From contig CAVXJH010000006.1 in the NCBI GenBank assembly GCA_963762115.1, forward strand, positions 1 to 64,000: a DNA stretch of 64,000 nucleotides. The letters are read 5' to 3'. A model generated the notes under the pieces. That model was not told where the DNA came from. It saw only the letters and a list, made by a program, of their open reading frames with translations, and did not search any database. Each line of letters starts with the position of its first letter. Within the stretch, counting starts at the first letter, position 1. Positions 9,389 through 49,622 of this stretch are shown piece by piece. Position numbers and translations under genes: made by a program. The DNA comes from Candidatus Babeliales bacterium (lineage in GTDB: Bacteria > Babelota > Babeliae > Babelales > JANWKD01).

Positions 9389-10216
9389 TTATAGCCGTAG
9401 GATATCTGCTATTTCAGGTGGGATAGAAATAAATGCGTCAAGAATTCGTTCGACATCTTCTTGAGAGAAGGGGCCCATAGATGTTTGAGCAGATTGATCT
9501 ATTCTAGGTGATTCATAAGGGCTACGAAATCGCTTTGTGGTATTCGATGTATTTAACACTGAATTTGATTGTGAATGCATTGTATCATCAATTTTTCTTT
9601 TTTTTGATCGATGAACTTTATCGTAATGTGCTTTATATTCTTTTTGGTTTGGAAATGTTCGTATGTGGTTGCATTTCTTGCAATTATGAGGAGTTTGATC
9701 TGATTGATGATCTTTAACTGATCGATGAACTTCATAGTAATGTTGGTTATATTCTTTTTGGTTTGGAAATGTTCGTATGGGGTTGCATTTCCTGCAAGCA
9801 TGAGGAGCTTCTGATCGATGATCTTTAACTAATCGATGATCTTTACCGTAATGTTGGTTATATTCTTTTTGGTTTGGAAATATTTGTATGGGATTGCATT
9901 TCCTGCAAGTATAAGGAGTTTGATCTAATTGATGAACTTCATAGTAATGTTTTTTATATTCTTCTTGACTTGGAAATGTTTGTGCAGGGTTACATTTCCT
10001 ACAACGAGAACGGGATAATTTAGTATTGTTCTGTGGCTCGGGTTGCGCTCTAGCGCAAGCAGTTAATCCAAGATAGACTGACGTTGGGTTGAGATAAGTT
10101 GGTTGCGTGTTGTTCTCATTAAAGAATTCAGCGTGTTGTTCCATTGCAAATAATGAGCTGCATGAGAACGCAAGGAGAAGCGCTGTAATCAATCTCGTTT
10201 GAGATCTAATCTTCAT
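9389..10216 (-). CDS. secreted protein with four C2H2-like zinc fingers and a basic NLS-like motif
   Basis: Signal peptide ...SLFA|MEQ; 4x C-x2-C-x5-F-x5-Y-x2-H-x4-H; then SKKRK. Confidence 0.75.
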   Translation of the reverse strand: MKIRSQTRLITALLLAFSCSSLFAMEQHAEFFNENNTQPTYLNPTSVYLGLTACARAQPEPQNNTKLSRSRCRKCNPAQTFPSQEEYKKHYYEVHQLDQTPYTCRKCNPIQIFPNQKEYNQHYGKDHRLVKDHRSEAPHACRKCNPIRTFPNQKEYNQHYYEVHRSVKDHQSDQTPHNCKKCNHIRTFPNQKEYKAHYDKVHRSKKRKIDDTMHSQSNSVLNTSNTTKRFRSPYESPRIDQSAQTSMGPFSQEDVERILDAFISIPPEIADILRL

Positions 10217-23363: not shown

Positions 23364-23498
23364 AATCAGAATTGTCATTGCGAGCGTAGCGTGGCAACCC
23401 AGATAATAAAATTAGTTCATTAAAAAAGAAATTTACCAAAATTCTGGGTTGCCACACCTTGCCTATCGAAGGCAAGGTTCGCAATGACAATTCTGATT
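23364..23498. repeat. TGTC-tagged REP-like palindromic doublet
   Basis: AATCAGAATTGTCATTGCGAG-..-GTGGCAACCCAG ... CTGGGTTGCCAC-[hairpin]-TCGCAATGACAATTCTGATT. Confidence 0.88.
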
Positions 23499-27446: not shown

Positions 27447-27566
27447 TCAGATATAAGTATGGATTTTTTATTAATTATATACTTTTTTGTAAGAATTAAT
27501 ATTGGGTTTTGTTTGTAGTAATTATTATCTATTTCTTATATTGTTTTGCTTTTTTTAATATCATTC

Positions 27567-27806
27567 GGCCCTATGCGGGCAGCACAAATGTATTGCGTGC
27601 CCAATACATTTGATACAAAGGCCCCAACGTTTCGTTGGATCTAATCTCTCGCTCGAATGCGGACCACTCCATTATTCATGCTTTCAGCATCAAAATTCCG
27701 GGTACCCGTCTCGCTACCGGAATAATATTTATAAATTTCTCTCAATACAAATAACATCCAAAAAAGAAATGTCATCCTGAGGCGATAGCCGTGAGGATCC
27801 AGTCTA
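27567..27806. repeat. ~240-bp structured noncoding element, copy A
   Basis: Near-identical reverse complement at 31942-32184; contains several hairpins and a terminal TGTCATCCTGAG...GAGGATCCAG REP-like unit. Confidence 0.92.
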
Positions 27807-27830
27807 AAAATTTTTCCAAAATAATAAAAA

Positions 27831-28376
27831 TTAATGTTTATTGTTCATCAACTCACGCAAAAACCAACCCGCAGCACCACAAGAAATGCCCGTCGACAGC
27901 ATACCTAACCCGGCACAATAATAAGGATGCCGCTCAAATACATTCTTTTGTTTTTTAATCCTTGTTTCAGTATTAGATACATGTATTAATGGTAAAATTC
28001 TTTTTTCCATTGGTCGAATATCCCATATAACCGTTGAATTATTGTTTCTTTGCCCATTATTTTTAAGTAATAAAGCGGGAAAACAACGATCAACATCTTT
28101 TTGAGTAAGGGGAAAATTACTGACTATTTTAATTGATACTCGACCTCTATTAAGATTCTCAAAAAATAAACTATCATTATCCATTCCATCGGGATAATGA
28201 TTTTTTTCCGTTTGTGCAAAAAGATATTCCGAAATAAAACTATAAAATCTGGTGGGCTTATCAACAAGAAGAGTATGCTTCATCACATTCTTCTTTCTTT
28301 TCTTCTTTATGCCTAATAATCCTGTTGATGAAAAAAATAATAAAAAAACAAAAATACTCATTGCCCAGGTTCTCAT
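27831..28376 (-). CDS. secreted protein with C-terminal TM tail (family member 4)
   Basis: Signal peptide followed by KKKRKK; tail VFERHPYYCAGLGMLSTGISCGAAGWFLRELMNNKH. Confidence 0.72.
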   Translation of the reverse strand: MRTWAMSIFVFLLFFSSTGLLGIKKKRKKNVMKHTLLVDKPTRFYSFISEYLFAQTEKNHYPDGMDNDSLFFENLNRGRVSIKIVSNFPLTQKDVDRCFPALLLKNNGQRNNNSTVIWDIRPMEKRILPLIHVSNTETRIKKQKNVFERHPYYCAGLGMLSTGISCGAAGWFLRELMNNKH

Positions 28377-28467
28377 AACTCTTTTTCTCACTCTATTTTT
28401 ATAATAATTGATAAAATACTGAAAAATTAGCCTTATAAACAACCAAAAGAATAGGTTGTTATTAAAA

Positions 28468-28511
28468 AAAAACAGGGCTTGCTTGAAAATAGCCAAGCAG
28501 GCCCTGTTTTT
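28468..28511. terminator. intrinsic terminator
   Basis: AAAAACAGGGCTTGCTTG...CAAGCAGGCCCTGTTTTT. Confidence 0.7.
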
Positions 28512-28538
28512 GAATAATTTTTAACGATCACTCTTTAT

Positions 28539-29009
28539 TTATTTTTTACTTCCCCACCAATAACCTACCGCTCCTCCCACAGCAACAGATAAACCACACA
28601 CCCCTAACATGACGTTCATTGGATTCCTTTGAAAATAAGATTCTTTTCTTTTAATATCATCATGAACGGTACGAACAAAATTAGTATCTGAAGGTGATGC
28701 TATATGCTTTTTATGACTTTTGTCAGATTTTACCTGCAAGTGAGAAAGTGATGGAGTAAGAGAAATAACATGCAAAACATTCTCAAAAAAGTGAGGAAGC
28801 GCAATCGCTATATAGCGTTTTTTTTCTTCGTCAAACACAACCTTAAACTCTTGACTGGTACCACAAAAAAATGATGGCCCATAAGTTATACTTCCCAATC
28901 TTAGCTCAACATTAGGACCTTCTTGCTTAACTTCTGTCTCCATGCCGAATGTAAAAAAAGAGCTATTCAACAACATCCCTAACGCGAAGAAAAAAAATAT
29001 TTTTTTCAT
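28539..29009 (-). CDS. secreted protein with C-terminal TM tail (family member 5)
   Basis: TFG|MET; tail YFQRNPMNVMLGVCGLSVAVGGAVGYWWGSKK. Confidence 0.75.
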   Translation of the reverse strand: MKKIFFFFALGMLLNSSFFTFGMETEVKQEGPNVELRLGSITYGPSFFCGTSQEFKVVFDEEKKRYIAIALPHFFENVLHVISLTPSLSHLQVKSDKSHKKHIASPSDTNFVRTVHDDIKRKESYFQRNPMNVMLGVCGLSVAVGGAVGYWWGSKK

Positions 29010-29048
29010 AAAAAACCTTACTGATTTAAAAATAATACATACACTTAA

Positions 29049-29645
29049 TTAATTAAAAAGATGCTGTGCCCGCTGCAAAAAAAGCTTTAATCTTCGATAA
29101 TCATTCCCCGTTAATAATGAAAATGCCTCTAAAAACAATTCAATATGTTTTGGATGTAAACAATCCATATCACGCATCGTTTTCAAAAGGGCCAACAAAA
29201 GCTCATCTAAATTATGCACCTGGCCAGCAAGACCAAATAAAACATGCAAATAATGCTCACGAGCAAAAAATTCTTTACTCAATGTTGGACAAGCTGTTGC
29301 AACAAAAGTATGAATTTTGGGAGGCTCTGGCGCGCACTGATAAAAAATTTTCCCTTTTTCTTTATAGCCAATAACTAAACAAGAAAAAGTAGTCTTTAAA
29401 AATTCAAAAATTTGTGGTTGCTCTCGCAAAAGCTCTTCTTCTGTTTTTTGATAGGGAAATGGATAACGAACAGGATCCATAGAGCCAGTTTGAATCTGAT
29501 GCACAATACCAAAAAGAGTGTACTTTTTGCTTTCGATCGTCACCAATGAACCAAAAGTTGGAAAAGTATGCCATTCCCAGCTCTGCGCTAACCAACTAAC
29601 GAGTGAACTTTCTATAACTTCGGCAAAAGGTTTTTTTGAATTCAT
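29049..29645 (-). CDS. HAS-barrel-like domain protein
   Basis: AEVIESS, PTFGSLV, EEELLREQPQIFEFLKT, PEPPKIH, DYRRL resemble the stand-alone HAS-barrel family. Confidence 0.7.
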   Translation of the reverse strand: MNSKKPFAEVIESSLVSWLAQSWEWHTFPTFGSLVTIESKKYTLFGIVHQIQTGSMDPVRYPFPYQKTEEELLREQPQIFEFLKTTFSCLVIGYKEKGKIFYQCAPEPPKIHTFVATACPTLSKEFFAREHYLHVLFGLAGQVHNLDELLLALLKTMRDMDCLHPKHIELFLEAFSLLTGNDYRRLKLFLQRAQHLFN

Positions 29646-29744
29646 TTTAAAAAAAACAGTATGTTATATTTTTTTATACACAAGAACAATATACAAAAAC
29701 TATAACAGTTTTTTAAAAAAACTCATAAATAAGTAAATAACTAC

Positions 29745-30389
29745 TTATTTATTACGCCAATTATCCCACAAAGTCTTTAAACTCCAACCAGCACCCAAAC
29801 TAGCTACTGAAGTTAATCCACAACAAACAAAGGCTTGAGAACGAAAAAATGAAGGCTTGGGTTTAGCTATTTCTGCATCTATTTTTTCATTACTCTGTTT
29901 TTTTACTTCCGCCACTTCACCTACTAGTTCATAATTCAACTGTATTAGATTGCTTATTACTAAATTCTTTCGCTTTTTTATTGCCTTCACTGCAGGTTTT
30001 TGTATGCCACGAACATCTAAAGCAATACAACCTGCACCTGGAATCGAACTATCTGAATATACTATTTGAGGTATATAATTATCTATATTGTCTAAATCAA
30101 GTGGTACAACAGAAAGAACTTCTACGTCTGGCCGCTCTTCTTCTTCACCCGTAGTAAATTTATTCTTTAATCCCTGAACAAACTCTTCATCTTTTTTATA
30201 TTCATGACGAGCTATCGATACAAAAGCTAGCCGACGCATACTCACAGCTCCTTCAGAGGTTATCTCTTCTCTTGCTGTATAAGGCCTAACTGCACTATTA
30301 GTTTTACGAGACATTCGTACTGCATTAAGATCTAAACTTGCCATAAGCATTAACATGCCGAAACTTAAAAAAAATATTTTTTTCATCAT
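29745..30389 (-). CDS. secreted protein with C-terminal TM tail (family member 6)
   Basis: MKKIFF signal peptide; tail SFFRSQAFVCCGLTSVASLGAGWSLKTLWDNWRNK. Confidence 0.72.
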   Translation of the reverse strand: MMKKIFFLSFGMLMLMASLDLNAVRMSRKTNSAVRPYTAREEITSEGAVSMRRLAFVSIARHEYKKDEEFVQGLKNKFTTGEEEERPDVEVLSVVPLDLDNIDNYIPQIVYSDSSIPGAGCIALDVRGIQKPAVKAIKKRKNLVISNLIQLNYELVGEVAEVKKQSNEKIDAEIAKPKPSFFRSQAFVCCGLTSVASLGAGWSLKTLWDNWRNK

Positions 30390-30515
30390 AAAAAACCTTT
30401 ATATTTAAAATTAATATATTCATTTCATTAATTAAACAATACTGAAAAGAGCCACAGAAATCAAACAAAAATTAAATTTATATTCTGTTTTATTTTTTAT
30501 TTGAAATAAGATTCA

Positions 30516-31208
30516 TCAGAAAATTTCTTGTTGCTCATTAAAATCATCTTCTTGCTCACCGATTAGCCAAGCACCTTGTAAAAAGTTAATACGATGAATA
30601 ACCGAATGCCCTAAATCTTGCACCAAAGCACGATGCTTGGGTGTAGCATACCCTTTATGAGCAGCAAGCAAATAGCCGGGAATAGCGTTATCAAAATGAA
30701 TCATAAGACGATCGCGTGTTACTTTTGCAACAATGGAAGCAGCGGCAATTGAACTAGATTTTTTTTCACCAAAAGGGAAATAAAGAACATCAATATTGGA
30801 AAAAGGCGAGTTATCAAGCCTTAAAGGCATAGCATCAATCACCGTTTTTGATGGTAAAGGGCAACCTTGAGACATAAGCTGCATGAAAGCTCGTTTCATT
30901 GCCTTAAGCGTTGCTTGATAAATGTTATGCGTATCAATTGCACGATGATGCAAAGATGCTGTTGCATGCCAGCTATTTTTGAGAATCCAAGAATATGCCT
31001 TATCACGTTCCTCTTTGGTCATTATTTTTGAATCCTTAAGCAAACGATGGTTTTTACCCGGATGCAATATGACAGCAGCAACCACAACCGGTCCTGCCAA
31101 ACACCCACGACCAACTTCATCAATACCACAAATGAGCTTATTTTCTGCCCATGCAGTATGCTCAAAATGATTTTTATTAAAACGTTCTTTGTAGCGAATG
31201 GTTGTCAT
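30516..31208 (-). CDS. rnhB: ribonuclease HII (canonical bacterial type)
   Basis: GIDEVGRGCLAGPV, KDSK, IAAASIVAKVTRD, HKGYAT..H. Confidence 0.95.
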   Translation of the reverse strand: MTTIRYKERFNKNHFEHTAWAENKLICGIDEVGRGCLAGPVVVAAVILHPGKNHRLLKDSKIMTKEERDKAYSWILKNSWHATASLHHRAIDTHNIYQATLKAMKRAFMQLMSQGCPLPSKTVIDAMPLRLDNSPFSNIDVLYFPFGEKKSSSIAAASIVAKVTRDRLMIHFDNAIPGYLLAAHKGYATPKHRALVQDLGHSVIHRINFLQGAWLIGEQEDDFNEQQEIF

Positions 31209-31557
31209 GAAATATACAGTTCAAAAAAATAACTGATTTAAACAATAGCGAACAGCATAAAACAGTATACGATTATTTAACACAAAGTAAAAATTAATTC
31301 TGAATCTATTTCCATTAGTGCAACATATTTTACCAAGTGTTAAGTGCACTTAACAAATAGTTATACTAAACGCTAAATGACTTAACATTTGGTATTGAAT
31401 TCGAGAGGGAAAGGGTCTATTTTTAAGGAAAGTTGTCTTGCCAAACCTGCAAACAGGTTTTTTATACCCAAAGGATAGGCCTGATGACAAAAAAAATATT
31501 TTTATGTATAATAGTAATGTTATAAATAAAAATGGCATTTACGGAGGTTTTACTATT

Positions 31558-31914
31558 ATGAATTATCTTAAAAAAACACTTATTCTTTTTTTACTTCTGG
31601 GAAGCTCTTTGCCTTTTAATAGCATGAAAGCAAAATCCATTGAAGAAACAAAAAAAAGCCCTTTTACAAGACAATGCATACATAACAATCTAATACTGCC
31701 CAAAATAAAACGAATAGCACCCGAAATAACTTCAAGATTCGAAAGACAATATTACCTCCAAAAAATCACACCTTCCTCTACTAGAATTTTGCAGATTTTT
31801 TTCGAACAAAAACAATTAAAAAATCTTGATTTTAAATATATTTCGTCATATTTCAAAAATTTTAAATCACCAACAAAAGTCGCCTATTCGCAACAAACAC
31901 AACATAAATCATAA
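31558..31914 (+). CDS. hypothetical secreted basic protein
   Basis: GGAGG RBS; MNYLKKTLILFLLLGSS signal peptide. Confidence 0.6.
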   Translation: MNYLKKTLILFLLLGSSLPFNSMKAKSIEETKKSPFTRQCIHNNLILPKIKRIAPEITSRFERQYYLQKITPSSTRILQIFFEQKQLKNLDFKYISSYFKNFKSPTKVAYSQQTQHKS

Positions 31915-31941
31915 ATTGGCCCGCTATCGGACTTGTATTTA

Positions 31942-32184
31942 TAGACTGGATCCTCAACGGCTATCGCCTCAGGATGGCATTTCTTTTTTGGATGTTATTT
32001 GTGTTGAGAGAAATTTATAAATATTATTCCGGTAGCGAGACGGGTACCCGGAATTTTGATGCTGAAGGCATCAATAATGGAGTGGTCCGCATTCGAGCGA
32101 GAGGTTAGATCCAACGGAACGTTGGGGCCCTTGTATCAAATGTATTGGGCAAACAATACATTTGTGTCTGGCCGACATGAGGCC
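31942..32184. repeat. ~240-bp structured noncoding element, copy B (inverted relative to copy A)
   Basis: Reverse complement aligns with 27567-27806 with scattered substitutions. Confidence 0.92.
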
Positions 32185-32234
32185 TTAGTAATAAAAATCA
32201 TAAAAAAGTGAAACAATTTTCTTGTTTAAACGAG

Positions 32235-33245
32235 CTATTTTATAAAATCCTTTTCTTTGATCGCCAAAGGATCTTCAAATGCCCTTGGATCACCCTTTGC
32301 TTTCAGCAGCTTTATTCGTTCCTTAAGTCGCTTAATACGAACAGTTGGATGAGGATGAGAATGCGCTCGAGAATCCTTGTCATAAAATTTTGTATGTAAA
32401 AGATAGTGATCTTTTAAACGATTTTTAAATGCTTTTAAAAGATGAATGTTATCCGCTATGGCAGAATCTGCCCTTGATTCTCTATATTGTGAATACCGAA
32501 ATGCTCCTTCTCGAGCAACAGACTCAGGCCCTACGATCGTTGTAAAAAAAATAAAAATTGGCCAAGAAACTTTTTTGCATTTCAATAATAAAGCGAATGG
32601 GCTCAACATAACCCCAACTGCTAATCCATAGTATAATTCTTTTTCATATATAAAATTTCCGTTATCATACCATAAATGATAACGATCACCATTAAGAATA
32701 TGTCCTCCCTCATGATGTACTACCGCTGCAGCCTGTTTTAAATACTCATCAGTTGATTTTTTAATTGACTGCTCCTGTTCGTCACCATAGAAAAATGTCT
32801 TTATTTTTGAAAAAAACGACGGAACATATTTTTGACGCACAAGACATTCTTTAAGGCGATCATGTTCTGCCACTGATATAATTTTTTTTCCTTCTTGAGC
32901 TGAACCACCCCAACGCCGTGCCTTTATAATGTGTAAAGATTCCTGATCTTTAAGGCCACATGCAGCTAATTGTTGCCGAATAAATTGTTCAACAAGAGGG
33001 TCAACTTCTATAACAGAATCTAAAACTGGTTTTTGCTCAAAAAGATCTTCCTTATTAGATAAAAATCCCGCTAAGGCAATGCCTGTACCCACGCCTGCCA
33101 CGATTCGCCCCCAGGATTGAATTCGGGCCATCTTTGACCCTACAACAATCTGCTTTAAGTGATTAGTGCTATGCTGCATCCCTAGAATGGAGCCTGATAG
33201 GTGAAATATACTATAAATCGTTATTATAAAATAATGTTTAAACAT
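32235..33245 (-). CDS. secreted M48-family metallopeptidase (paralog of 34776-35816)
   Basis: HHEGGH, ESRAD, HSHP; shares VDP.VEQF.R.QL and AFEDPLA.KE with the paralog. Confidence 0.8.
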   Translation of the reverse strand: MFKHYFIITIYSIFHLSGSILGMQHSTNHLKQIVVGSKMARIQSWGRIVAGVGTGIALAGFLSNKEDLFEQKPVLDSVIEVDPLVEQFIRQQLAACGLKDQESLHIIKARRWGGSAQEGKKIISVAEHDRLKECLVRQKYVPSFFSKIKTFFYGDEQEQSIKKSTDEYLKQAAAVVHHEGGHILNGDRYHLWYDNGNFIYEKELYYGLAVGVMLSPFALLLKCKKVSWPIFIFFTTIVGPESVAREGAFRYSQYRESRADSAIADNIHLLKAFKNRLKDHYLLHTKFYDKDSRAHSHPHPTVRIKRLKERIKLLKAKGDPRAFEDPLAIKEKDFIK

Positions 33246-33399
33246 AATGCATCTTGTATGAGTTTAAATAAAAATCGCTAACACTCTATTGTTTTGTGAA
33301 AAAATAGTATTGTCAAATTGCAACTTCATCAAGATTCCAGACTCATAGCGCGCTACCAAAATATTTTATAACTATTTTTATTTTTGTTGATCAAAAAAC

Positions 33400-33464
33400 T
33401 TGCAAATATATAGTCAAATATCCTATATTAAGTCCAAAGGTAAGACAAATCCTTACCTTTGGAC
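33400..33464 (+). promoter_or_regulatory. abiE promoter with inverted-repeat operator
   Basis: TTGCAA-N18-TATATT followed by a perfect 13-bp IR GTCCAAAGGTAAG-N7-CTTACCTTTGGAC. Confidence 0.65.
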
Positions 33465-33485
33465 CATATAATGAATAGAAGGCTC

Positions 33486-34094
33486 ATGGAAAAAAAGATT
33501 GTAAAAGGTTTTATAAAAGATTTATTCAAATCATCAAAGACTGTTTTTTCGTTTAAAGATCTTTGTCTTTTATGGGGAAATGCTGATCCTAAAACCATAA
33601 AATCACGCATAAATTACTATGTAAAACATGGGGATCTCTATCATATTCGTCGTGGTTATTATGCCAAGGATAAAAATTATGATCGCCTTGAATTCGCTAC
33701 CAAAATTTTCACTCCTGCCTATATAAGCTTTGAAACAGTTCTTGCACAAGCAGGTATTATTTTTCAATATTACCATGAAATTTTTGTGGCTTCATATAAG
33801 TCAAAAAGTATCATCTGCGATAACCAAATCTATACTTTTAAATCTATTAAATCAGTGATTCTCACCAATTCTGCCGGCATTGAAATTAAAGAACATTATT
33901 CTATTGCCTCCCCGGAAAGAGCTTTTTTAGACATTATTTATTTGAACACTAGTTATCATTTCGATAACCTTTCTCCCTTGAATTGGCACAAAGTATATGA
34001 AATTTTGCCTATTTATGAGAATAATAAACGAATGAAAAAAATGGTCGAAATGTATCATAATTTCTATAAATCTGAATTAGGAGAAAAAGTATGA
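33486..34094 (+). CDS. type IV toxin-antitoxin antitoxin, AbiEi family
   Basis: wHTH (HIRRGYY), PAYISFETVL, ASPERAFLD; 4-bp overlap with the downstream toxin gene. Confidence 0.88.
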   Translation: MEKKIVKGFIKDLFKSSKTVFSFKDLCLLWGNADPKTIKSRINYYVKHGDLYHIRRGYYAKDKNYDRLEFATKIFTPAYISFETVLAQAGIIFQYYHEIFVASYKSKSIICDNQIYTFKSIKSVILTNSAGIEIKEHYSIASPERAFLDIIYLNTSYHFDNLSPLNWHKVYEILPIYENNKRMKKMVEMYHNFYKSELGEKV

Positions 34095-34783
34095 CTATTG
34101 ATAATGCTCAACATAAAAATATCCTTATCAGAATACTCAAAGATATTTTCACCAATCCTAGCTTGGGTCCAACATTAGGCTTCAAAGGTGGAACAGCTGC
34201 CATGTTATTTTATGGTTTAAATCGCTTTTCTGTTGATTTAGATTTTGATCTTTTGGACATAACCAAAGAAGATCATATCATTAATGAACTTAAAAAAATC
34301 TTAGAAAAATATGGCACAATAAAAGAAGCCAACAAAAAAAGATATACCATTTTTTTCTTACTTTCTTATGATCAAAAAGTAAAAAATGGCCAGAATATTA
34401 AAGTTGAAATCAATAAAAGAAATTTTGGATCAAAATATGACATCAAAGAATATCTTGGGATATCGATGAAAATAATGACACGCGAAGATATGGCCGCCCA
34501 TAAACTTGTTGCCATGCATGAAAGAATTGGAAAAACAAATCGCGATATTTTTGATGTTTATTACTTTTTAAGCAATAATTGGCCAATCAATAAACTCATC
34601 GTTGAACAAAGAACTAGCATGAAATATCAAGATTTTTTGCAAATTTGTATTTATGAACTAGAGGAAATGAGCAATCAAAATATTCTTTCAGGTATTGGTG
34701 AACTTTTAGATGAAAAGCAAAAGGCATGGGCAAAAACAAACCTTAAAAAAGAAACTATTTTTTTGCTTAAACTAGCTATTTAA
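34091..34783 (+). CDS. type IV toxin-antitoxin nucleotidyltransferase toxin, AbiEii family
   Basis: FKGGTA, RFSVDLDF, KVEIN, AHKL...RDIFD. Confidence 0.92.
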   Translation: MTIDNAQHKNILIRILKDIFTNPSLGPTLGFKGGTAAMLFYGLNRFSVDLDFDLLDITKEDHIINELKKILEKYGTIKEANKKRYTIFFLLSYDQKVKNGQNIKVEINKRNFGSKYDIKEYLGISMKIMTREDMAAHKLVAMHERIGKTNRDIFDVYYFLSNNWPINKLIVEQRTSMKYQDFLQICIYELEEMSNQNILSGIGELLDEKQKAWAKTNLKKETIFLLKLAI

Positions 34784-35816
34784 TCTGCCCATCTTCTTTA
34801 GCCGCCAAAGGATCTTCAAATGCTTTTGGATTACTCTTTTCTTTAAGCGCTTTTATGCGTTTTTTAACACGTTTAATTTCTACTTTATGGTGAGGATGAG
34901 TATCGAAAGCACGATGCAATAATTTTTCATAACCAACATCATGCACTTGATTTACGATCAACGTTGTTTTGAAATATCTTTTTGCAGCACTTAAAATTTC
35001 AATGTTGTCTTGTATATTGTCATCTGCCTGTTGTTCAATAAATCGGGAATAGGCAGAAAATCCTAATCCATTCAGACAGCCTTTGAATAGTCCATCCGGA
35101 ATTTTAATAGCTTGTTTAATCCAATAATTATTAAATCTAAGAAACTTTTTTTTAAAACCAAAACTCAAAAGCTCAGTTGCCAAAAGAGTGGCTAATCCTG
35201 CCATTGTCCGTCTATTTCTATCGTGATTAATAATATGCCCAGCTTCATGATGCAATATACCAGCGACTTCATTAAGATATTCTTCACAATCCATTGTTAC
35301 ATTACATTTTTTAAAGTTTAGCGTTATAGTACTCTTCAAAAAATCCTCTAAATTTGAAGACTTAATTTCCAATACATGCTTAAGATCATCTTGCTGAGAC
35401 ACAAAAATCCATTGATAATTATTGGTTGTTATTGCAGCCCACCTATTGGTGAACTTTCCGGCCCAATTTCCGGTTTGTTTAATTTTTAATGAATCTTGAT
35501 TAGTAAGCCCAGCCAATTTTAATTGTTCCCGTGCAAATTGCTCTACAATTGGATCAACATCAGGCGCCTTCTCAAATTCCGATTCACTTGTGGCTAAAAC
35601 CTTAATCCCCTCAGAAAATGGATATAAAGCAAACCCATAATTCGCCAAGGTACATCCCCCGGCAAAGCCAGTGGCGACTGCCGTCTTCCAACCAAAATTT
35701 TGTTTGCATTGTTGATAGCGTTTTTTAAAGGCACCCATAGCATGTACTTTTTCAGGCATGCATAATAATGCCACCATGCTCAACACAAAAAACATACTAA
35801 ATTTTTTTCTTACCAT
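34776..35816 (-). CDS. secreted M48-family metallopeptidase
   Basis: VHA|MGA; HHEAGH, EQQAD, DTHP. Confidence 0.8.
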   Translation of the reverse strand: MVRKKFSMFFVLSMVALLCMPEKVHAMGAFKKRYQQCKQNFGWKTAVATGFAGGCTLANYGFALYPFSEGIKVLATSESEFEKAPDVDPIVEQFAREQLKLAGLTNQDSLKIKQTGNWAGKFTNRWAAITTNNYQWIFVSQQDDLKHVLEIKSSNLEDFLKSTITLNFKKCNVTMDCEEYLNEVAGILHHEAGHIINHDRNRRTMAGLATLLATELLSFGFKKKFLRFNNYWIKQAIKIPDGLFKGCLNGLGFSAYSRFIEQQADDNIQDNIEILSAAKRYFKTTLIVNQVHDVGYEKLLHRAFDTHPHHKVEIKRVKKRIKALKEKSNPKAFEDPLAAKEDGQIK

Positions 35817-36014
35817 AATTCCCCTAATTGTTTCTATTTTGCTTAATTTTATCATAAGATTAGTATTTCATAAATCAATTAAATTGTCAAAATGAAAATA
35901 AACAGAGGTGGCAAGGCCAATTTTTTGTACTCTTTAGCCTGTTTTTAATGCGACAGGGCCCTAAACGAGCGGATTAGATGAAATTTATTGAATTTACCGG
36001 CGAAATGTTTCCAT

Positions 36015-37762: not shown

Positions 37763-37883
37763 CAAGTAACCAAAATAGTTTTAAGATGAATACTTATATA
37801 GGTTAAATCATAGTAAGTTTCGTCTTAAAACTATTTTTTGATAGAACTAAATTGGGTATAAAAAAGTGGCTTTTTACAAAGAA

Positions 37884-38085
37884 AATGTCATTGCGAGGCA
37901 CATTGTGCCGTGGCAACCCAGATTATAATGTTCTAATAAATGAATTTCTAACGAAAACGACCTGCTTCTTTATCTTATAATCAGTAACTGCCAGATTGTA
38001 GGTTTTTAATATGCTTATAGAATGAAAACAAAATTAAATTTTATATACTGGGTTGCCACGGCACAATGTGCCTCGCAATGACATT
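37884..38085. repeat. TGTC-tagged REP-like doublet with perfect 38-bp inverted repeats
   Basis: 37884-37921 AATGTCATTGCGAGGCACATTGTGCCGTGGCAACCCAG and its exact reverse complement at 38048-38085. Confidence 0.92.
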
Positions 38086-38273
38086 CTCAGGTCACTATCT
38101 CAGTAGTATGATAAAAAAAGTAGTTAGCACTCTTGGAAATTCACCATAGACAGTATTTTTTAGCTATTTTTACTGGACTTTTTTTCAAAATAGTTTACAA
38201 TAAGAAATAAACAGGGTCTTGCTTACGGTCGTAATCAGACTCATTTAATAACAAATTTAACTGTGTGTGCGGA

Positions 38274-40071
38274 ATGACTATGAATAGAAGATCAAATCTA
38301 CGAAACATTGCTATCATCGCTCACGTTGACCATGGCAAAACAACCTTAGTTGATAAACTATTGCGTCAATCGGGAACGGTAACTGATGTCTCGGATCGCC
38401 TTATGGACTCAAATGCCTTGGAAAAAGAACGTGGTATCACCATTTTGGCAAAAAATACTGGTATAACCTATGGCGACTACACTATTAATATTGTAGATAC
38501 TCCTGGTCACAGTGACTTTGGTGGTGAAGTTGAACGAACCTTGCAAATGGTTGAAGGCTTTTTACTCTTGGTTGATGCCGCTGAAGGCGTTTTACCAGGA
38601 ACACGATTCGTATTGCGAAAAGCCCTTGAACTTAACTTAAAACCCTTAGTGCTCATCAATAAAATTGATCGTAAAGATGCTGATATTGCAGGCACTGAAA
38701 GATTAATTCAAGATTTATTCCTTGATTTAGCACAAGATGAATCTCAACTTGAATTCCCTATTTTATACGGATCATCAAGAATGGGATTTGCTAATTTTGA
38801 TTCAACACTCATGTCGGGTGATATGAAACCTTTATTTGAAGCAATTATCAAAACGGTTCCTGCTCCTGTTGCAAAAAATGATCACTTGCAAATTTTAGTA
38901 ACCAGCTTAGATCACTCTGATTTCTTAGGGCCTATTGCTATTGGTCGTGTTTTTAGTGGTTCACTTGAACTTGGCCAACAATTCATCTGTTGCAAAGAAG
39001 ATTTTGTCAGCAAGACTATGAAAGTAACCAAATTATATACCTTCCAAGGGTTACATCGCATAGAAACACAAAAAGTTGAATTTGGCGATATCATTGCTAT
39101 GACAGGATTCACTGAACCTGTTACCATTGGTACCACCATCTGTGAAGTTGGTCATCCTCTACCTTATCCTTATGTTATGATTGATGAACCAACACTCTCT
39201 ATGTATTTTTCCGTAAACGATTCGCCCTTTACTGGTCGTGATGGAAAATTATTAACCTCACGTCAAATTAAAGATCGCTTAGAAAAAGAATTAAAAACAA
39301 ACGTTGCTTTACGTGTTGATCCAACCGAATCAGCTGAAAAGTTTAAAGTTTCTGGTCGCGGACAATTGCATCTTGGTATTTTAGTTGAAAATATGCGTCG
39401 CGAAGGCTTTGAATTACAACTTTCTGCACCTGAAGTTATTTATAAAACCATTGATGGTGTCAAATGTGAACCAATCGAATACTTAGTAATCGATATTATG
39501 GAAGAGCATCAAGGCATTGTTATGGAAAGATTGGGTAAGAAAAAAGCTGAAATGAAAAACATTCACCATTATGAAAATGGCAGAATGCGCCTTGAATTTG
39601 AAATTCCTTCACGTGGATTACTTGGTTTCAGAAGTCAATTCTTAACCGATACACGCGGAACAGGTTTAGCAAACTTCAACTTTCAAGGATATCAACCTTA
39701 TAAAGGCGATATTCCAACCAGAACAAAAGGTGCCTTAGTTTCAATGGAAACAGGACGCTTCAACCGGTTTTGCCTTAGACAATTTACAAGCTCGTGGCAC
39801 GCTCTTTATCAAACCTGGCGAAAACTTGTATGAAGGTATGATCATTGGTGAAAATAGCCGTGAAGGTGATATGGATGTGAATCCATGCAAGCAAAAGAAG
39901 CTTACCAACATGCGTGCATCAGGAACTGATGAAATGATTAAGCTAACACCACCTCGTCCTATGGAACTGGAAACGTGTATGGAATGGATTATGCCCGATG
40001 AATTGATTGAGGTTACTCCCCATGACATTCGTCTTCGCAAAAAAATTCTTAAGGCGAACCTTAGAAAATAA
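38274..40071 (+). CDS. typA: translational GTPase TypA/BipA (frameshift near 39755)
   Basis: [30 protein letters not shown]. One extra base at ~39755-39756; removing it restores ...[18 protein letters not shown]...YEGMIIGE...[10 protein letters not shown]. Confidence 0.93.
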
Positions 40072-42246: not shown

Positions 42247-44721
42247 TTAACTAATTATACAGCGTTCTTTTTCTTCTAATAATATGCAGTGTTTTTCTTC
42301 TTCGCCTTTTTTTTCTTCTAATAAACGGATTGCTCTTTTATTGTGCTTAGCCTCTGCCCATTTAAGAATTTGAATTTTATCAATGGTCGAATTATGAGAA
42401 AGAATACATTTAAGAATTCCAGTTAAATTACTATGCTCAGCTACATGTTGCAATATTGTTATTGCGCTATTAATTTTGCATGGAACATTTACATCTGCTC
42501 CGGCCTTAATTAACCATCTTGCTATAGTTGATTTTGCTAAGGTGTTACCTTTTAGAGCCCACATAAATAGAGGAATTCCCTTATTATTAACTCGATTAAC
42601 ATCAATACCAGGCATTTTAAGAAATAATTGAACAATTTTATAATCACTATCATCCCGTAACCACCATCCCGTGGCCGCTGCTACTAATGGAATAGTTCCC
42701 TCATTATCTGCTTTATTAATATCGATACCAGGTGCTTCAAGTAATAATCGAATAATTTTAAACTCTTTATCATCCCTTGAAAAAAATAACCCGTCCTCCT
42801 CCCATCCTATGGCCGCTAACAATGGAGTAATTCCCTCATTATTAGTTTTATTAACATCAATACTAGGTGCTTCAAGTAATAATTGAACAATTTCTGATTT
42901 TCCATACCTTATGGCAAGTATCAATGGAGTAATTCCCTCATTATCTGCTTTATTAGTATCGATACCAGGTGCTTCAAGTAATAATTGAACAATTTCTGAT
43001 TTTCCATGTCTTATAGCAAATATCAATGGAGTAGTTCCCCACTTATTAGTAGCTTTATTAATATCAATACCAGGTGCTTCAAGTAATAATTGAATAATTT
43101 GATAATCTTCTTTTAATATAGCCATTATCAATGGTGTTTCCCCATTCATATTTTCTGTATTAACATCAGCACCAAATTGAATTAACCATTTTGCAATTTC
43201 AAGTTTTTGTTCCTTCATTGCATAGGTAAGTAAATTATATCCATACATACGAAAATTAATATCAACACCTTTTGCAATTTCTTCTTGAACTGCATCAAGA
43301 TCATTATTATTTATTGCATTTACTAGCTTAGCTCGTATCATTCCACTTAAACAAAAATCTAACATTGATTGTTCAAGTTGGGATATTTTTGATTCCTTCT
43401 CTGCTTTCTCGCCAAAATTTTCCTGAAGCACATCTTGTTTGCTATTATTTTCTTCGACTATTTTTCTCAAAAACTCTACTATTTCTTGATTAATCTCATG
43501 AACTGGGTTTAGAGGGCTAGTTTCCATAAATTCATCTTCAATAATTGCACCAAGATTGACTAATTTTTTAACCAAATCAAAGTTATTTCCTTTGGCTGCA
43601 TACAATAATGCACTTTTACTCCATTTATTTTGAGCATTCACATTCAATGCTCCAACGTCAACAGAAGTGAGTAATTTAACAATTTTGGAAGTGCCATAAA
43701 GCATAGCTTTTATTAAAGGCGTTGAGCCATCATCAGCAATTGCATCAATATTTGCACCCATAACTAATAAAAATTGTACAATTTTATAATGCTGGTTTGA
43801 AATGGCAATCATTAATGGCGTAATGCCATTTTGAATAGGCAAATCAATAATAATATCTTTATGATTAGCTAAAGCTTTTACAATGTTAAAATTACCTTCT
43901 CTTGCAGCTTCCGCTAAAACAGTCCATCCCGTATGATCTTTAACATTCACATTTATCATTGAGTCACTAAGTAATGTTATTACAGCTTCAAGATCATTAT
44001 TTTTAACTGCCGTTATCAACGGTGAGTATGTATTATTAATTTGCGCTCGCCTTTTAATATTTTTAAGATAATTACTTAATGCTCTTTTTTGATAATCAGC
44101 ATTTTTTTGATGAAGATAATGAAGAGAAGCATCATAACCAGCTTTTAAACCTGATTCAATAACTCTTATTGGTTTTTTAATCATAGTTGCTAAAATTTGC
44201 TTTTTTGTCTTTTTAGCTTTTTTATTTTCTTGTAATTCTTGAGAGTCTTTCTCTTTTCCTTTTTCAGTCTGCTTTATATCAGGTTGTTTTTCTGTTTTTT
44301 CTGAATCATCATTTATAAATGGTTCTGTTGCATTTTGTAGTATTGGTCTATTTTCCTGAGGTGATAAACGATTTACCACTTGATCAAAACCATATTCAAA
44401 TGCAAGATCAAAAGCAGTTCTTTCTTTGCCATCTTTAATATCACCTCGAGCGTTATTATCTATCAAATAATTAACAATTGTGAAGTCTCCACTTTCTTGG
44501 CACATTAGAATTGCTTCCAAAAGAGCAGTTGAAGAATCTAAATCTTGTTCATCAATATCAATATCACCGAATTTAACAATTGCTTGAATAAGATCAAAAT
44601 CATTCTGCCGAACAGCAGAAATTAATGGTGTTGTATCGCCACTATTCACTTCCATGGCCAAAATGGGCGAAAGGTTAGCGATGGCGAAAAAAATAGTTAA
44701 GAAAATAATATATTTATTCAC
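42247..44721 (-). CDS. secreted ankyrin-repeat protein with C-terminal CaaX motif
   Basis: ILA|MEV; many G.TPL..A repeats including near-identical LLEAPGID.NK units; ends CIIS*. Confidence 0.9.
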   Translation of the reverse strand: MNKYIIFLTIFFAIANLSPILAMEVNSGDTTPLISAVRQNDFDLIQAIVKFGDIDIDEQDLDSSTALLEAILMCQESGDFTIVNYLIDNNARGDIKDGKERTAFDLAFEYGFDQVVNRLSPQENRPILQNATEPFINDDSEKTEKQPDIKQTEKGKEKDSQELQENKKAKKTKKQILATMIKKPIRVIESGLKAGYDASLHYLHQKNADYQKRALSNYLKNIKRRAQINNTYSPLITAVKNNDLEAVITLLSDSMINVNVKDHTGWTVLAEAAREGNFNIVKALANHKDIIIDLPIQNGITPLMIAISNQHYKIVQFLLVMGANIDAIADDGSTPLIKAMLYGTSKIVKLLTSVDVGALNVNAQNKWSKSALLYAAKGNNFDLVKKLVNLGAIIEDEFMETSPLNPVHEINQEIVEFLRKIVEENNSKQDVLQENFGEKAEKESKISQLEQSMLDFCLSGMIRAKLVNAINNNDLDAVQEEIAKGVDINFRMYGYNLLTYAMKEQKLEIAKWLIQFGADVNTENMNGETPLIMAILKEDYQIIQLLLEAPGIDINKATNKWGTTPLIFAIRHGKSEIVQLLLEAPGIDTNKADNEGITPLILAIRYGKSEIVQLLLEAPSIDVNKTNNEGITPLLAAIGWEEDGLFFSRDDKEFKIIRLLLEAPGIDINKADNEGTIPLVAAATGWWLRDDSDYKIVQLFLKMPGIDVNRVNNKGIPLFMWALKGNTLAKSTIARWLIKAGADVNVPCKINSAITILQHVAEHSNLTGILKCILSHNSTIDKIQILKWAEAKHNKRAIRLLEEKKGEEEKHCILLEEKERCIIS

Positions 44722-47906: not shown

Positions 47907-49622
47907 TCACTGAAGATTAGCAGGATTTCTCAGATGATAATCTTGTGGATTTTTTTCACTCACAAAATCAGGTTTATACAATATTTTATCATCAGTAAAA
48001 TATTCTGGACGAGCTATTTTGTCATCTCCATTACCCTGGGCATAATAAATCAGATCTGTTATTTTTTCATTAAAGCGAGGAGTTAAATCAAGTCCTTTAA
48101 TATCTTTAAAGAGATTATAAACTGCATCAAGGACAAGTTGCGCATTTTCTTTACCCAGACTGGGGGCAATTACCATTATTGGTGGTACTTCATTGCCATA
48201 TTCTTTTGTTAATTTTTCTTTAAGTATTTGTGGATTTTCTTCAAAATCAAAATCACTTCTCACTTTAAGAGTATTTACCGCTTTTTGTAATGCAGGGTTT
48301 GTCCCAAGAGCTTTCAAAAATTGTTCTAAGATTATCATAAAATCGTTAGCATCTTTTGGCATCAAATGAATTTTATATAAACCAACCAAATCTTCTTTGA
48401 TTTTTTTCAACCGCTCTTCTGGTGTCCCTGCGGGTGCATTGTAATAAGATTTTAACACAAGCTCGCTGTCATCTCCAGGACTAGTCCTAACTCCTTTAAT
48501 TAATAGAGGAGAACCAAGAAAGATATAACCTCCAAAAAAAAGCTCTTCTATTTTACTTGAACCATCTATTTGTTCAACAAAATTATCTACCCAATCACCT
48601 TTGCTATCATAGGGTACTGTCGTTATACGAAAAAATGGCAATTTTTTTTGCTCTTCTAATTTTCTTCTTTCAAGCTCTTGTTGTTCTCTTTCTTGTTGTA
48701 ATCTCAACTTTTCTTGTCGCTTCACTTCCACTTCACGTTCTCTTTGCTTTTGAATTAAACGCCTTCGCTCTTCTTCACGCTCACGTTTTTCACGCTCAAT
48801 GCGCTGCTCTTCTAATCTTCTTTTTTCAAGAGCTAGTCGTTCTCGTTCTTGTTGTAATCTCAACTCTTCTTGTCGTTTTGCTTCTGCTTCACGTTCCCTT
48901 TGCTTTTGAGCTAAGCGCCTTTGTTCTTCTTCTTTCTTACGTTTTTCACGCTCAATGCGCTGCTCTTCTAATCTTCTCTTTTCAGCCGCTTGCCGTTCCC
49001 GTTCTTGTTGTTCTCTTTCTTGTTGCAATCTCAGCTCTTCTTGTCGCTTCGCTTCCGCTTCACGTTCTCTTTCTAGCTGAAGCTGAATTAAGCGCCTTTG
49101 CTCTTCTTCATATTTGCGTCTTTCACGCTCAATACGTTGCTCTTCTTCTAATCGACTTGTCTCAAGAGCCTGCTGCAACTCCCTTTCTTCTTGTAATCTC
49201 AACTCTTCTTGTCGTTTTGCTTCCGCTTCACGCTCCCGTTGCTCCTGAGCTAAGCGCCTTCGCTCTTCTTCACGCTCACGTTTTTCACGCTCAATACGTT
49301 GCTCTTCTAGTCTTCTTCTTTCATGTCGCTCTCGTTCTTGTTGCGCTCTTACTTGTTGCAATCTTAACTCTTCCCGAACTCGATTACGCTCTTCTAGCTC
49401 TCGTTCAAGAGCCGCTTGTTTTCTTTGCGCCTCAATAATTTGTTGATTTTTTTGTGCTTCACGATACAAGGTTTCTTCTAATACTTTTAAATGATCAGTA
49501 AGTTGAACAAGATTATTTTTTAATGCGTATAATGTTGCATGAACAGGAGAAAAAATGAAAAGAACAAACAAAGATATTATTATTTTTTTCATTTTCACGC
49601 TCATTAACAACCCTCCAGGCAT
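47907..49622 (-). CDS. secreted protein with long E/R/Q coiled-coil repeats and a globular C-terminal domain
   Basis: Signal peptide; repeated REAEAKRQEELRLQQE and RLEEQRIEREKR units; C-terminal domain with YKIHLMP. Confidence 0.8.
   Translation of the reverse strand: MPGGLLMSVKMKKIIISLFVLFIFSPVHATLYALKNNLVQLTDHLKVLEETLYREAQKNQQIIEAQRKQAALERELEERNRVREELRLQQVRAQQERERHERRRLEEQRIEREKREREEERRRLAQEQREREAEAKRQEELRLQEERELQQALETSRLEEEQRIERERRKYEEEQRRLIQLQLEREREAEAKRQEELRLQQEREQQERERQAAEKRRLEEQRIEREKRKKEEEQRRLAQKQREREAEAKRQEELRLQQERERLALEKRRLEEQRIEREKREREEERRRLIQKQREREVEVKRQEKLRLQQEREQQELERRKLEEQKKLPFFRITTVPYDSKGDWVDNFVEQIDGSSKIEELFFGGYIFLGSPLLIKGVRTSPGDDSELVLKSYYNAPAGTPEERLKKIKEDLVGLYKIHLMPKDANDFMIILEQFLKALGTNPALQKAVNTLKVRSDFDFEENPQILKEKLTKEYGNEVPPIMVIAPSLGKENAQLVLDAVYNLFKDIKGLDLTPRFNEKITDLIYYAQGNGDDKIARPEYFTDDKILYKPDFVSEKNPQDYHLRNPANLQ

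Follow-up and report, generated by a model that had tools for sequence, protein, structure and literature searches.

A pseudoknotted, multi-copy repeat with a predicted triple helix in a Babeliales genome

Extended TwoAYGGAY elements (RF01731) carry a 3′ pseudoknot, occur as divergent doublets, show mobile-like copy variation and are largely confined to Pseudomonadota, according to the accessible part of a preprint (bioRxiv 10.64898/2026.09.22.753630) in which neither a triplex nor a DNA fold is stated. The accessible parts of other reports describe the CGTC-type family of repetitive extragenic palindromes (REPs; PMC3733652) and Ssn-related motifs with GIY-YIG nucleases (PMC11893778), both matched by a unit described below, as well as R200, a 47-copy repeat of P. 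fluorescens SBW25 (PMC2718517), for which we claim no identity with the present repeat. Here we analyse a window of 64,000 nucleotides from a Candidatus Babeliales bacterium (positions 1 to 64,000 of CAVXJH010000006.1, assembly GCA_963762115.1), which is the start of contig C6 in a genome (G000) of 1.53 Mb that is 95% complete. The initial annotation of the window had reported two inverted copies, here A and B, of a ~240-bp noncoding element that bracket a 4.1-kb gene block. The core of these copies is a variant of a known but unexplained kind of repeat, the extended TwoAYGGAY type, without its AYGGAY loops. Our preferred explanation, held with slightly better than even confidence, is that the core is a non-autonomous mobile repeat, a knotted triplex of single-stranded DNA that is acted on in trans by an enzyme. 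Each copy would be one arm of a multi-copy non-coding repeat; most likely in the form of single-stranded DNA, the arm would fold into a pseudoknot that contains a parallel triple helix, and it would probably be spread by an enzyme that recognises the folded end. The usual unit would consist of two arms back to back with their knotted ends outward, as in REP doublets.

Anatomy, family and fold of the repeat

BLAST aligned 27567–27811 with 31937–32184 in inverted orientation at 93.5% identity over 248 bp; the near-identical pair is therefore real, but it is not unique, as the core alone forms a genome-wide family. The copies are richer in GC than their surroundings, as had been noted (0.44 and 0.45 against 0.34 for the window, with 0.10–0.17 in the flanks of copy A), and the two strands of copy B have folding z-scores of −3.4 and −4.0, with none of 200 shuffles as good. 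The 240-bp element is present, but as a composite rather than as a single unit. Read in the direction of copy B, a 39-bp CGTC/TGTC-type REP hairpin, rightly seen as REP-like in the initial annotation, is followed by a 47-bp AT-rich linker (GC 0.19) and a core of ~158 nt (GC 0.51). In copy B these parts lie at 31942–31980 (minus strand), 31981–32027 (plus) and 32028–32185 (plus; covariance-model score of 149.8 bits). In copy A the core, with its long interrupted hairpin, short hairpin, triplex-candidate pseudoknot and terminal pseudoknot, occupies 27566–27721 (minus; 145.4 bits, and covariation), the linker 27722–27768 (minus; weak promoter-like spacing by eye) and the REP hairpin, which belongs to a separate repeat family (PMC3733652, accessible part), 27769–27806 (plus). 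The combination of REP, linker and core occurs only in A and B genome-wide. The two copies have REP and linker in common and differ in the type of their terminal pseudoknot, as recent copying or conversion would allow. Their near-identity, which extends through REP and linker, probably goes back to a recent local copying event or to gene conversion.

A profile search with the core gave 26 matches in the genome at E<1e-9, equivalent to ~21 elements since five interrupted elements were counted twice, and a census of the terminal motif found 22 places. A strict pseudoknot finder returned 10 genomic copies and none in three shuffles; these are left out of the counts. The spread of the repeat is patchy: the core was detected by BLAST in 4 of 61 related genomes and by a covariance model built from 26 copies in 24 of 151 genomes from the order, with no more than about 19 candidates scored in any one genome. 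Among neighbours less than 1 kb apart, all 27 pairs were divergent, that is, back to back, with a median gap of 108 bp (148 of 229 order-wide matches; 150 were listed and two partial rows dropped). The partner arm is sometimes shrunk to the terminal pseudoknot in the genome under study. Copies A and B, each a single arm, keep this divergent layout at a distance of 4.3 kb, with native genes between them.

Compensatory changes preserve four elements of the core: a long and a short hairpin, an H-type pseudoknot and, at its end, a second, small pseudoknot. Across 26 distinct copies the proposed structure has 91.8% of cells paired and double changes at 17 of 33 pairs, counts that overstate independence because the structure was drawn from the same, related sequences; 0/500 shuffles reach it, and slid controls have 28–50% of cells paired. 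The annotated structured, multi-copy non-coding element is thus borne out, together with the covariation among collected genomic copies that had been proposed as its check. In copy B, whose core features are all on the plus strand, the long interrupted hairpin spans 32035–32098 and has at its base G-C and C-G pairs beside a nearly invariant A; family-wide, this long-range base is 83–86% paired with many double changes, and the 3′ arm of the hairpin holds the target of a Tn5-like insertion sequence (IS). A short hairpin with a GAA triloop follows at 32111–32125. The main pseudoknot (32127–32164) arises from pairing of GCCC at 32127–32130 with GGGC at 32147–32150 in the loop of the third hairpin. 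In a 38-copy alignment it is 99.3% paired, with double changes at three of its four pairs; it is the sole helix chosen unaided by RNAalifold, and distant copies hold further variants of it. Its counterpart in copy A lies at 27585–27622 (minus). A second, small pseudoknot closes most copies and is missing in some. It is of the GGCC type in copy B (32165–32184), unlike the GCCC/GGGC type of copy A (27567–27584, minus; assigned from sequence, helices 5 and 6 and the terminal-motif census), and both types occur elsewhere in the genome.

All the stems named in the initial annotation are in the sequence; ATTCCGG..CCGGAAT, however, is conserved within one subtype only and not as a fold of the family (69.6% of cells paired, covariation no greater than after a one-column slide). 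The terminal hairpin does differ in sequence between the copies and still pair, but it is the small pseudoknot and not a plain hairpin. That pseudoknot had been missed, as had the pairing of the GGGCAAA loop with the upstream GCCC. An Rfam scan of the window and 18 family loci gave nothing at the gathering score except a tRNA, together with chance-level matches by E-value, so the core matches no known Rfam family, as had been supposed. At 8 of 52 loci from other phyla (L089, L103, L110, L144 and similar), another stretch upstream could also pair with the pseudoknot's 5′ strand, which could allow two alternative folds.

The predicted triple helix

Searched with a gapped pseudoknot pattern of 18 letters, the GTDB collection gave at least 124 matching stretches, 80 of which were taken; those listed came from Pseudomonadota, Bacteroidota, Desulfobacterota, Nitrospirota, Bacillota and others, and viral contigs gave 0 matches. 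On a Salinisphaera contig (L116:735-969), a group II intron stands beside one such match. The triplex test used the 61 of 80 stretches with a stem of at least eight pairs, two of them forced by the pattern, and 19 were dropped. Among 37 distinct variants, position 3 of loop 1, which the search pattern leaves free, stood against the third base of the purine strand as T.A in 24, C.G in 10 and G.T in three, so that 37/37 fit the triplex code without exception (shuffle mean 18.5; reached in 0/5000). Position 4 fits in 35/37. Position 3 in the 109 parsed Babeliales-type copies, which include a few false parses, was G.T in 75, T.A in 19, G.C in five and other in 10.

As far as the accessible parts of two reports go, a T:A interruption in the parallel motif has G.T:A as its natural triad (PMC10609763), and class IV triplexes have the strand order third strand, pyrimidine strand, purine strand (PMC4666352). 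The third strand of the core matches the purine strand in parallel, as T.A-T and C.G-C, which at the level of sequence is the class IV pattern. We infer that loop 1 forms a parallel triplex on the pseudoknot stem; the predicted third strand is 32131–32136 on the stem 32137–32146/32155–32164 in copy B and, with family covariation behind it, 27613–27618 in copy A. Mirror symmetry would permit a class II reading (TM-ECO/PIT, purine-motif) on the opposite strand, and the G.T-A triads, GNA loops and G.T pairs favour class IV over it. Covariation among three strands in line with the textbook triplex code, G.T-A exception included, is rare comparative evidence for a selected triple helix in bacterial genomes, and the core offers a direct test of the in vivo relevance of intrastrand DNA triplexes.

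Loop usage bears on which molecule folds. In the 92 model matches, GNA accounted for 61/88 triloops on the folded strand compared with 3/88 on the other strand, and only 3/44 tetraloops were GNRA or UNCG. Upstream of the pseudoknot in other phyla, GNA was found in 15/39 compared with 3/39; control stretches gave 1 and 2 of 18. According to the accessible part of one report, GNA mini-hairpins have an extraordinary stability in DNA that is far from matched by their RNA counterparts (PMC13037366). The GNA triloops together with the G.T-A triad favour a fold as single-stranded DNA, and we put DNA, by a judgement just past even, ahead of RNA, which remains a close rival.

Weighing the explanations

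On the RNA side, the arms could be genes for small RNAs whose transcription starts in the AT-rich spacer and runs outward, and which spread as passengers of a mobile repeat, a reading we consider possible but on balance doubtful; a triple-helix pseudoknot at the RNA end, equally tentative, would bind a protein or protect the 3′ end. RNA often forms U.A-U triplex pseudoknots, as in telomerase and SAM-II, and the back-to-back geometry suits divergent transcription. A conserved TATAAA-like stretch 7–12 nt before many type-1 arms fits transcription as well, TwoAYGGAY, a related family, has its catalogue entry as an RNA, and G.T is commoner than A.C on the same strand (23 versus 11 cells, or 8 versus 5 in the best-aligned helices), a weak strand signal. 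Against the RNA reading stand the dominance of GNA triloops with RNA-type GNRA/UNCG loops nearly absent, a promoter scan of copy B that found none, and a copy number that ranges among related genomes from none found to at least 19. The ncRNA of the initial annotation is structured and non-coding as proposed; loop usage leans to single-stranded DNA, and RNA is the less likely molecule. By-eye comparison with OMEGA RNAs, riboswitches, group II intron domains and the pistol, twister and HDV-like ribozymes gave no fit.

Several observations weigh against a mobile repeat of single-stranded DNA. Among them are the TATAAA-like stretch and the G.T excess just mentioned, the limited independence of the counts, which come from related sequences, the formation of pyrimidine-motif triplexes in RNA too (PMC4666352, accessible part) and the G opposite C in 5/109 copies, where the DNA code prefers T. 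The search for a mobiliser adds to them. No mobilising gene was found in cis; clustering of open reading frames (ORFs) near all Babeliales-type loci returned only IS4, IS110, IS200 and ordinary genes, and a Pfam scan of 48 of the 144 neighbouring ORFs at multi-phylum loci revealed no recurring family. Co-occurrence is weak for the Y1 transposase (12/24 carrier genomes versus 42/127 others) and for two small GIY-YIG types (10/24 and 16/24 versus 30/127 and 74/127), and the reverse transcriptase family has no match in the 95% complete genome itself. Sequence inspection made no target duplication visible at the ends of A or B. Two observations hint at mobility. The repeat lies upstream of ftsY in one of four relatives, G003 (L054:13574-13731), directly before the gene and oriented as copy A, with none there in G001, G004 and G032. 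One contig of run X2, from a related strain, resembles an empty site for copy B: left of 32190 it runs for 30 letters, whose start matches 31929–31937. This latter reading is a single contig with nine matching letters on the left and the further left flank unaligned, and to that extent it too counts against.

Two insertion sequences have their target in the region of the repeat. A Tn5/IS50-like IS4 (462-aa transposase, 19-bp terminal repeats) is present in four copies (C3:422775-424236, C5:111119-112580, C6:301940-303401 and C6:394337-395798), all at one site in the long hairpin of the repeat, in both orientations and with an 8–10-bp duplication; it is a site-specific element. An IS110 of 313 aa has five copies (C3:514097, C5:38191, C6:169496, C6:254955 and C6:304511), four of them inserted in a second REP-type palindrome that is nested inside or beside the repeat. 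With 4/4 IS4 and 3/5 IS110 copies in or beside it, the core could be taken for a MITE (a miniature transposable element with inverted repeats) or an end remnant of either IS, but we judge this the least probable of the explanations considered, since the IS4 has terminal repeats of its own and duplicates its target within the hairpin, and the IS110 junctions fall in a different REP-type palindrome, with 2/5 copies away from the repeat. The ends and junctions proper to each IS mark the repeat as their target. An IS4-derived MITE, as four split copies had suggested, was rejected because the IS4 lies within the element and has ends unrelated to it, and the composite MITE put forward in the initial annotation is accordingly not one of a transposase in this genome. 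Membership of the core in REPIN/RAYT was also rejected, as no cognate Y1 transposase is flanked by the repeat; the five Y1 genes of the genome have IS200-type ends of their own, and 12/24 carrier genomes are without a Y1 match.

The inner 39-bp unit fits the CGTC-type REP/Ssn-related motif, with its CGTC/TGTC-tagged hairpin (43 regex matches genome-wide) and with REP-flanked GIY-YIG genes in the genome. At C3:533000 and C3:558442, inverted CGTC-type REPs flank small, Ssn-like GIY-YIG genes, and CGTC-type REP doublets occur in the window at 23373–23498, 37881–38088, 59477–59530 and 63040–63078.

The pair had also been thought able to invert or mobilise the enclosed block (27807–31941), which contains a HAS-barrel gene (29049–29645; Pfam, below cut-off), rnhB (30516–31208) and four ORFs without a Pfam match. 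Long near-identical inverted repeats can support homologous inversion, and the 245-bp inverted repeats here, at 93.5% identity, could do so; other wide back-to-back pairs bracket 0.8–2.2 kb of genes at six metagenome loci and once more in the same genome. That A and B are the ends of a composite element inverting or moving the 4.1-kb block is nevertheless highly unlikely. The order and relative strand of rnhB, the HAS-barrel gene and ftsY are kept in all four relatives: in G003, G004 and G032 these genes face away from S24-rpsF-rpsR-typA, as they do here, with no bracketing pair, and in G001 rnhB-HAS-ftsY-prmC are in line. In three of these four relatives, the stretch that separates the HAS-barrel gene from ftsY contains lineage-specific ORFs. 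Compared with the relatives, the block is not foreign, duplicated or reoriented. It contains no recombinase, the seven ORFs enclosed by wide pairs include no mobile-type nuclease or recombinase, and pairs elsewhere bracket ordinary genes too, housekeeping ones (exonuclease, NIF3) among them. No strand-changing joint is seen in the contigs of four DNA runs; none of these contigs spans the block, so they are uninformative on inversion. From gene order, the block is native and in its ancestral orientation, not cargo, and a mobile gene block is not supported at this locus.

Variation of other kinds is seen in the neighbourhood. A 214-aa ORF between rnhB and the HAS-barrel gene (29714–30514) is missing in the X2 strain, where one contig joins across. 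At 32235–35855, two paralogous genes for M48 peptidases enclose AbiEii together with what is likely its AbiEi partner, which has no Pfam match; this insert is missing in G004 and G032, and G003 has one M48 gene. Near its 3′ end typA is split over two frames (39833 / 39826–40071), by a frameshift or an assembly error. Coding-type tandem repeats at 9585–10016, 42557–43174 and 48648–49405 (111-, 102- and 156-nt units) probably encode repeat proteins.

Comparison with known systems

The core resembles REP, BIME and REPIN sequences in its doublet geometry, its GNA-capped hairpins, its place in an intergenic mosaic with other palindromes and its targeting by IS4 and IS110; IS elements reportedly target REPs. 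It differs from REPs in being 4–5 times longer and in having two pseudoknots, and its flanks hold no RAYT or Ssn gene, co-occurrence being weak.

Like TM-ECO, PIT and BoxC, it is a repeat dispersed over intergenic regions and interpreted as a triplex of single-strand DNA (PMC4666352, accessible part). TM-ECO and PIT are class II, purine-motif triplexes whose 3′ end forms the third strand, whereas the core has the class IV pyrimidine order; unlike these three repeats as described in that part of the text, it would be locked by a pseudoknot, tolerates G.T-A and sits within a larger multi-hairpin arm. The ncRNA arrays of UG27 reverse transcriptases are similar in that their units, of ~150 nt, combine a pseudoknot, a basal hairpin and a long hairpin that varies, as far as the accessible preprint text describes them (bioRxiv 10.64898/2026.09.22.753630). 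Those units form tandem arrays beside the reverse transcriptase in phages; the core forms dispersed doublets, with no reverse transcriptase match in its genome and no match on viral contigs.

The closest counterpart remains the extended TwoAYGGAY family, compared here with the accessible part of its description. Both are intergenic, multi-copy and strain-variable, with a 3′ pseudoknot, REP neighbours and no known mobiliser. Divergent doublets make up 68% in TwoAYGGAY, with a median of 249 bp, and 27/27 pairs of the core, with a median of 108 bp. The pseudoknot pattern of the core was found directly 3′ of RF01731 matches at three of 20 loci scanned (L094, L105 and L141), and we infer from this position that its pseudoknot is that of the extended TwoAYGGAY model. 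Unlike TwoAYGGAY, the core lacks AYGGAY hairpins (one motif in 3/92 copies, two in 0/92) and an RF01731 match, is shorter and has an extra terminal pseudoknot. No upstream array of GMTBT short repeats was obvious by eye in the stretches before the arms, an observation that was not counted. Judged by these sequence features, the core appears to work like the family without being a member by its defining AYGGAY feature. A literature search found no printed account of this variant or its triplex, and to that extent the element is undescribed, as the initial annotation had it; the pseudoknot end and the back-to-back pairing, in contrast, are in print for extended TwoAYGGAY. A wider proposal, tentative and well short of an even prospect, is that the core is the Babeliales branch of an ancient multi-phylum mobile DNA whose end is a single-stranded DNA pseudoknot with a selected triplex, the TwoAYGGAY 'RNAs' being a decorated lineage misfiled as RNA. 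The comparison shifts the question posed by TwoAYGGAY, from Csr-type loops to the part shared across phyla, namely the knotted end and the back-to-back layout.

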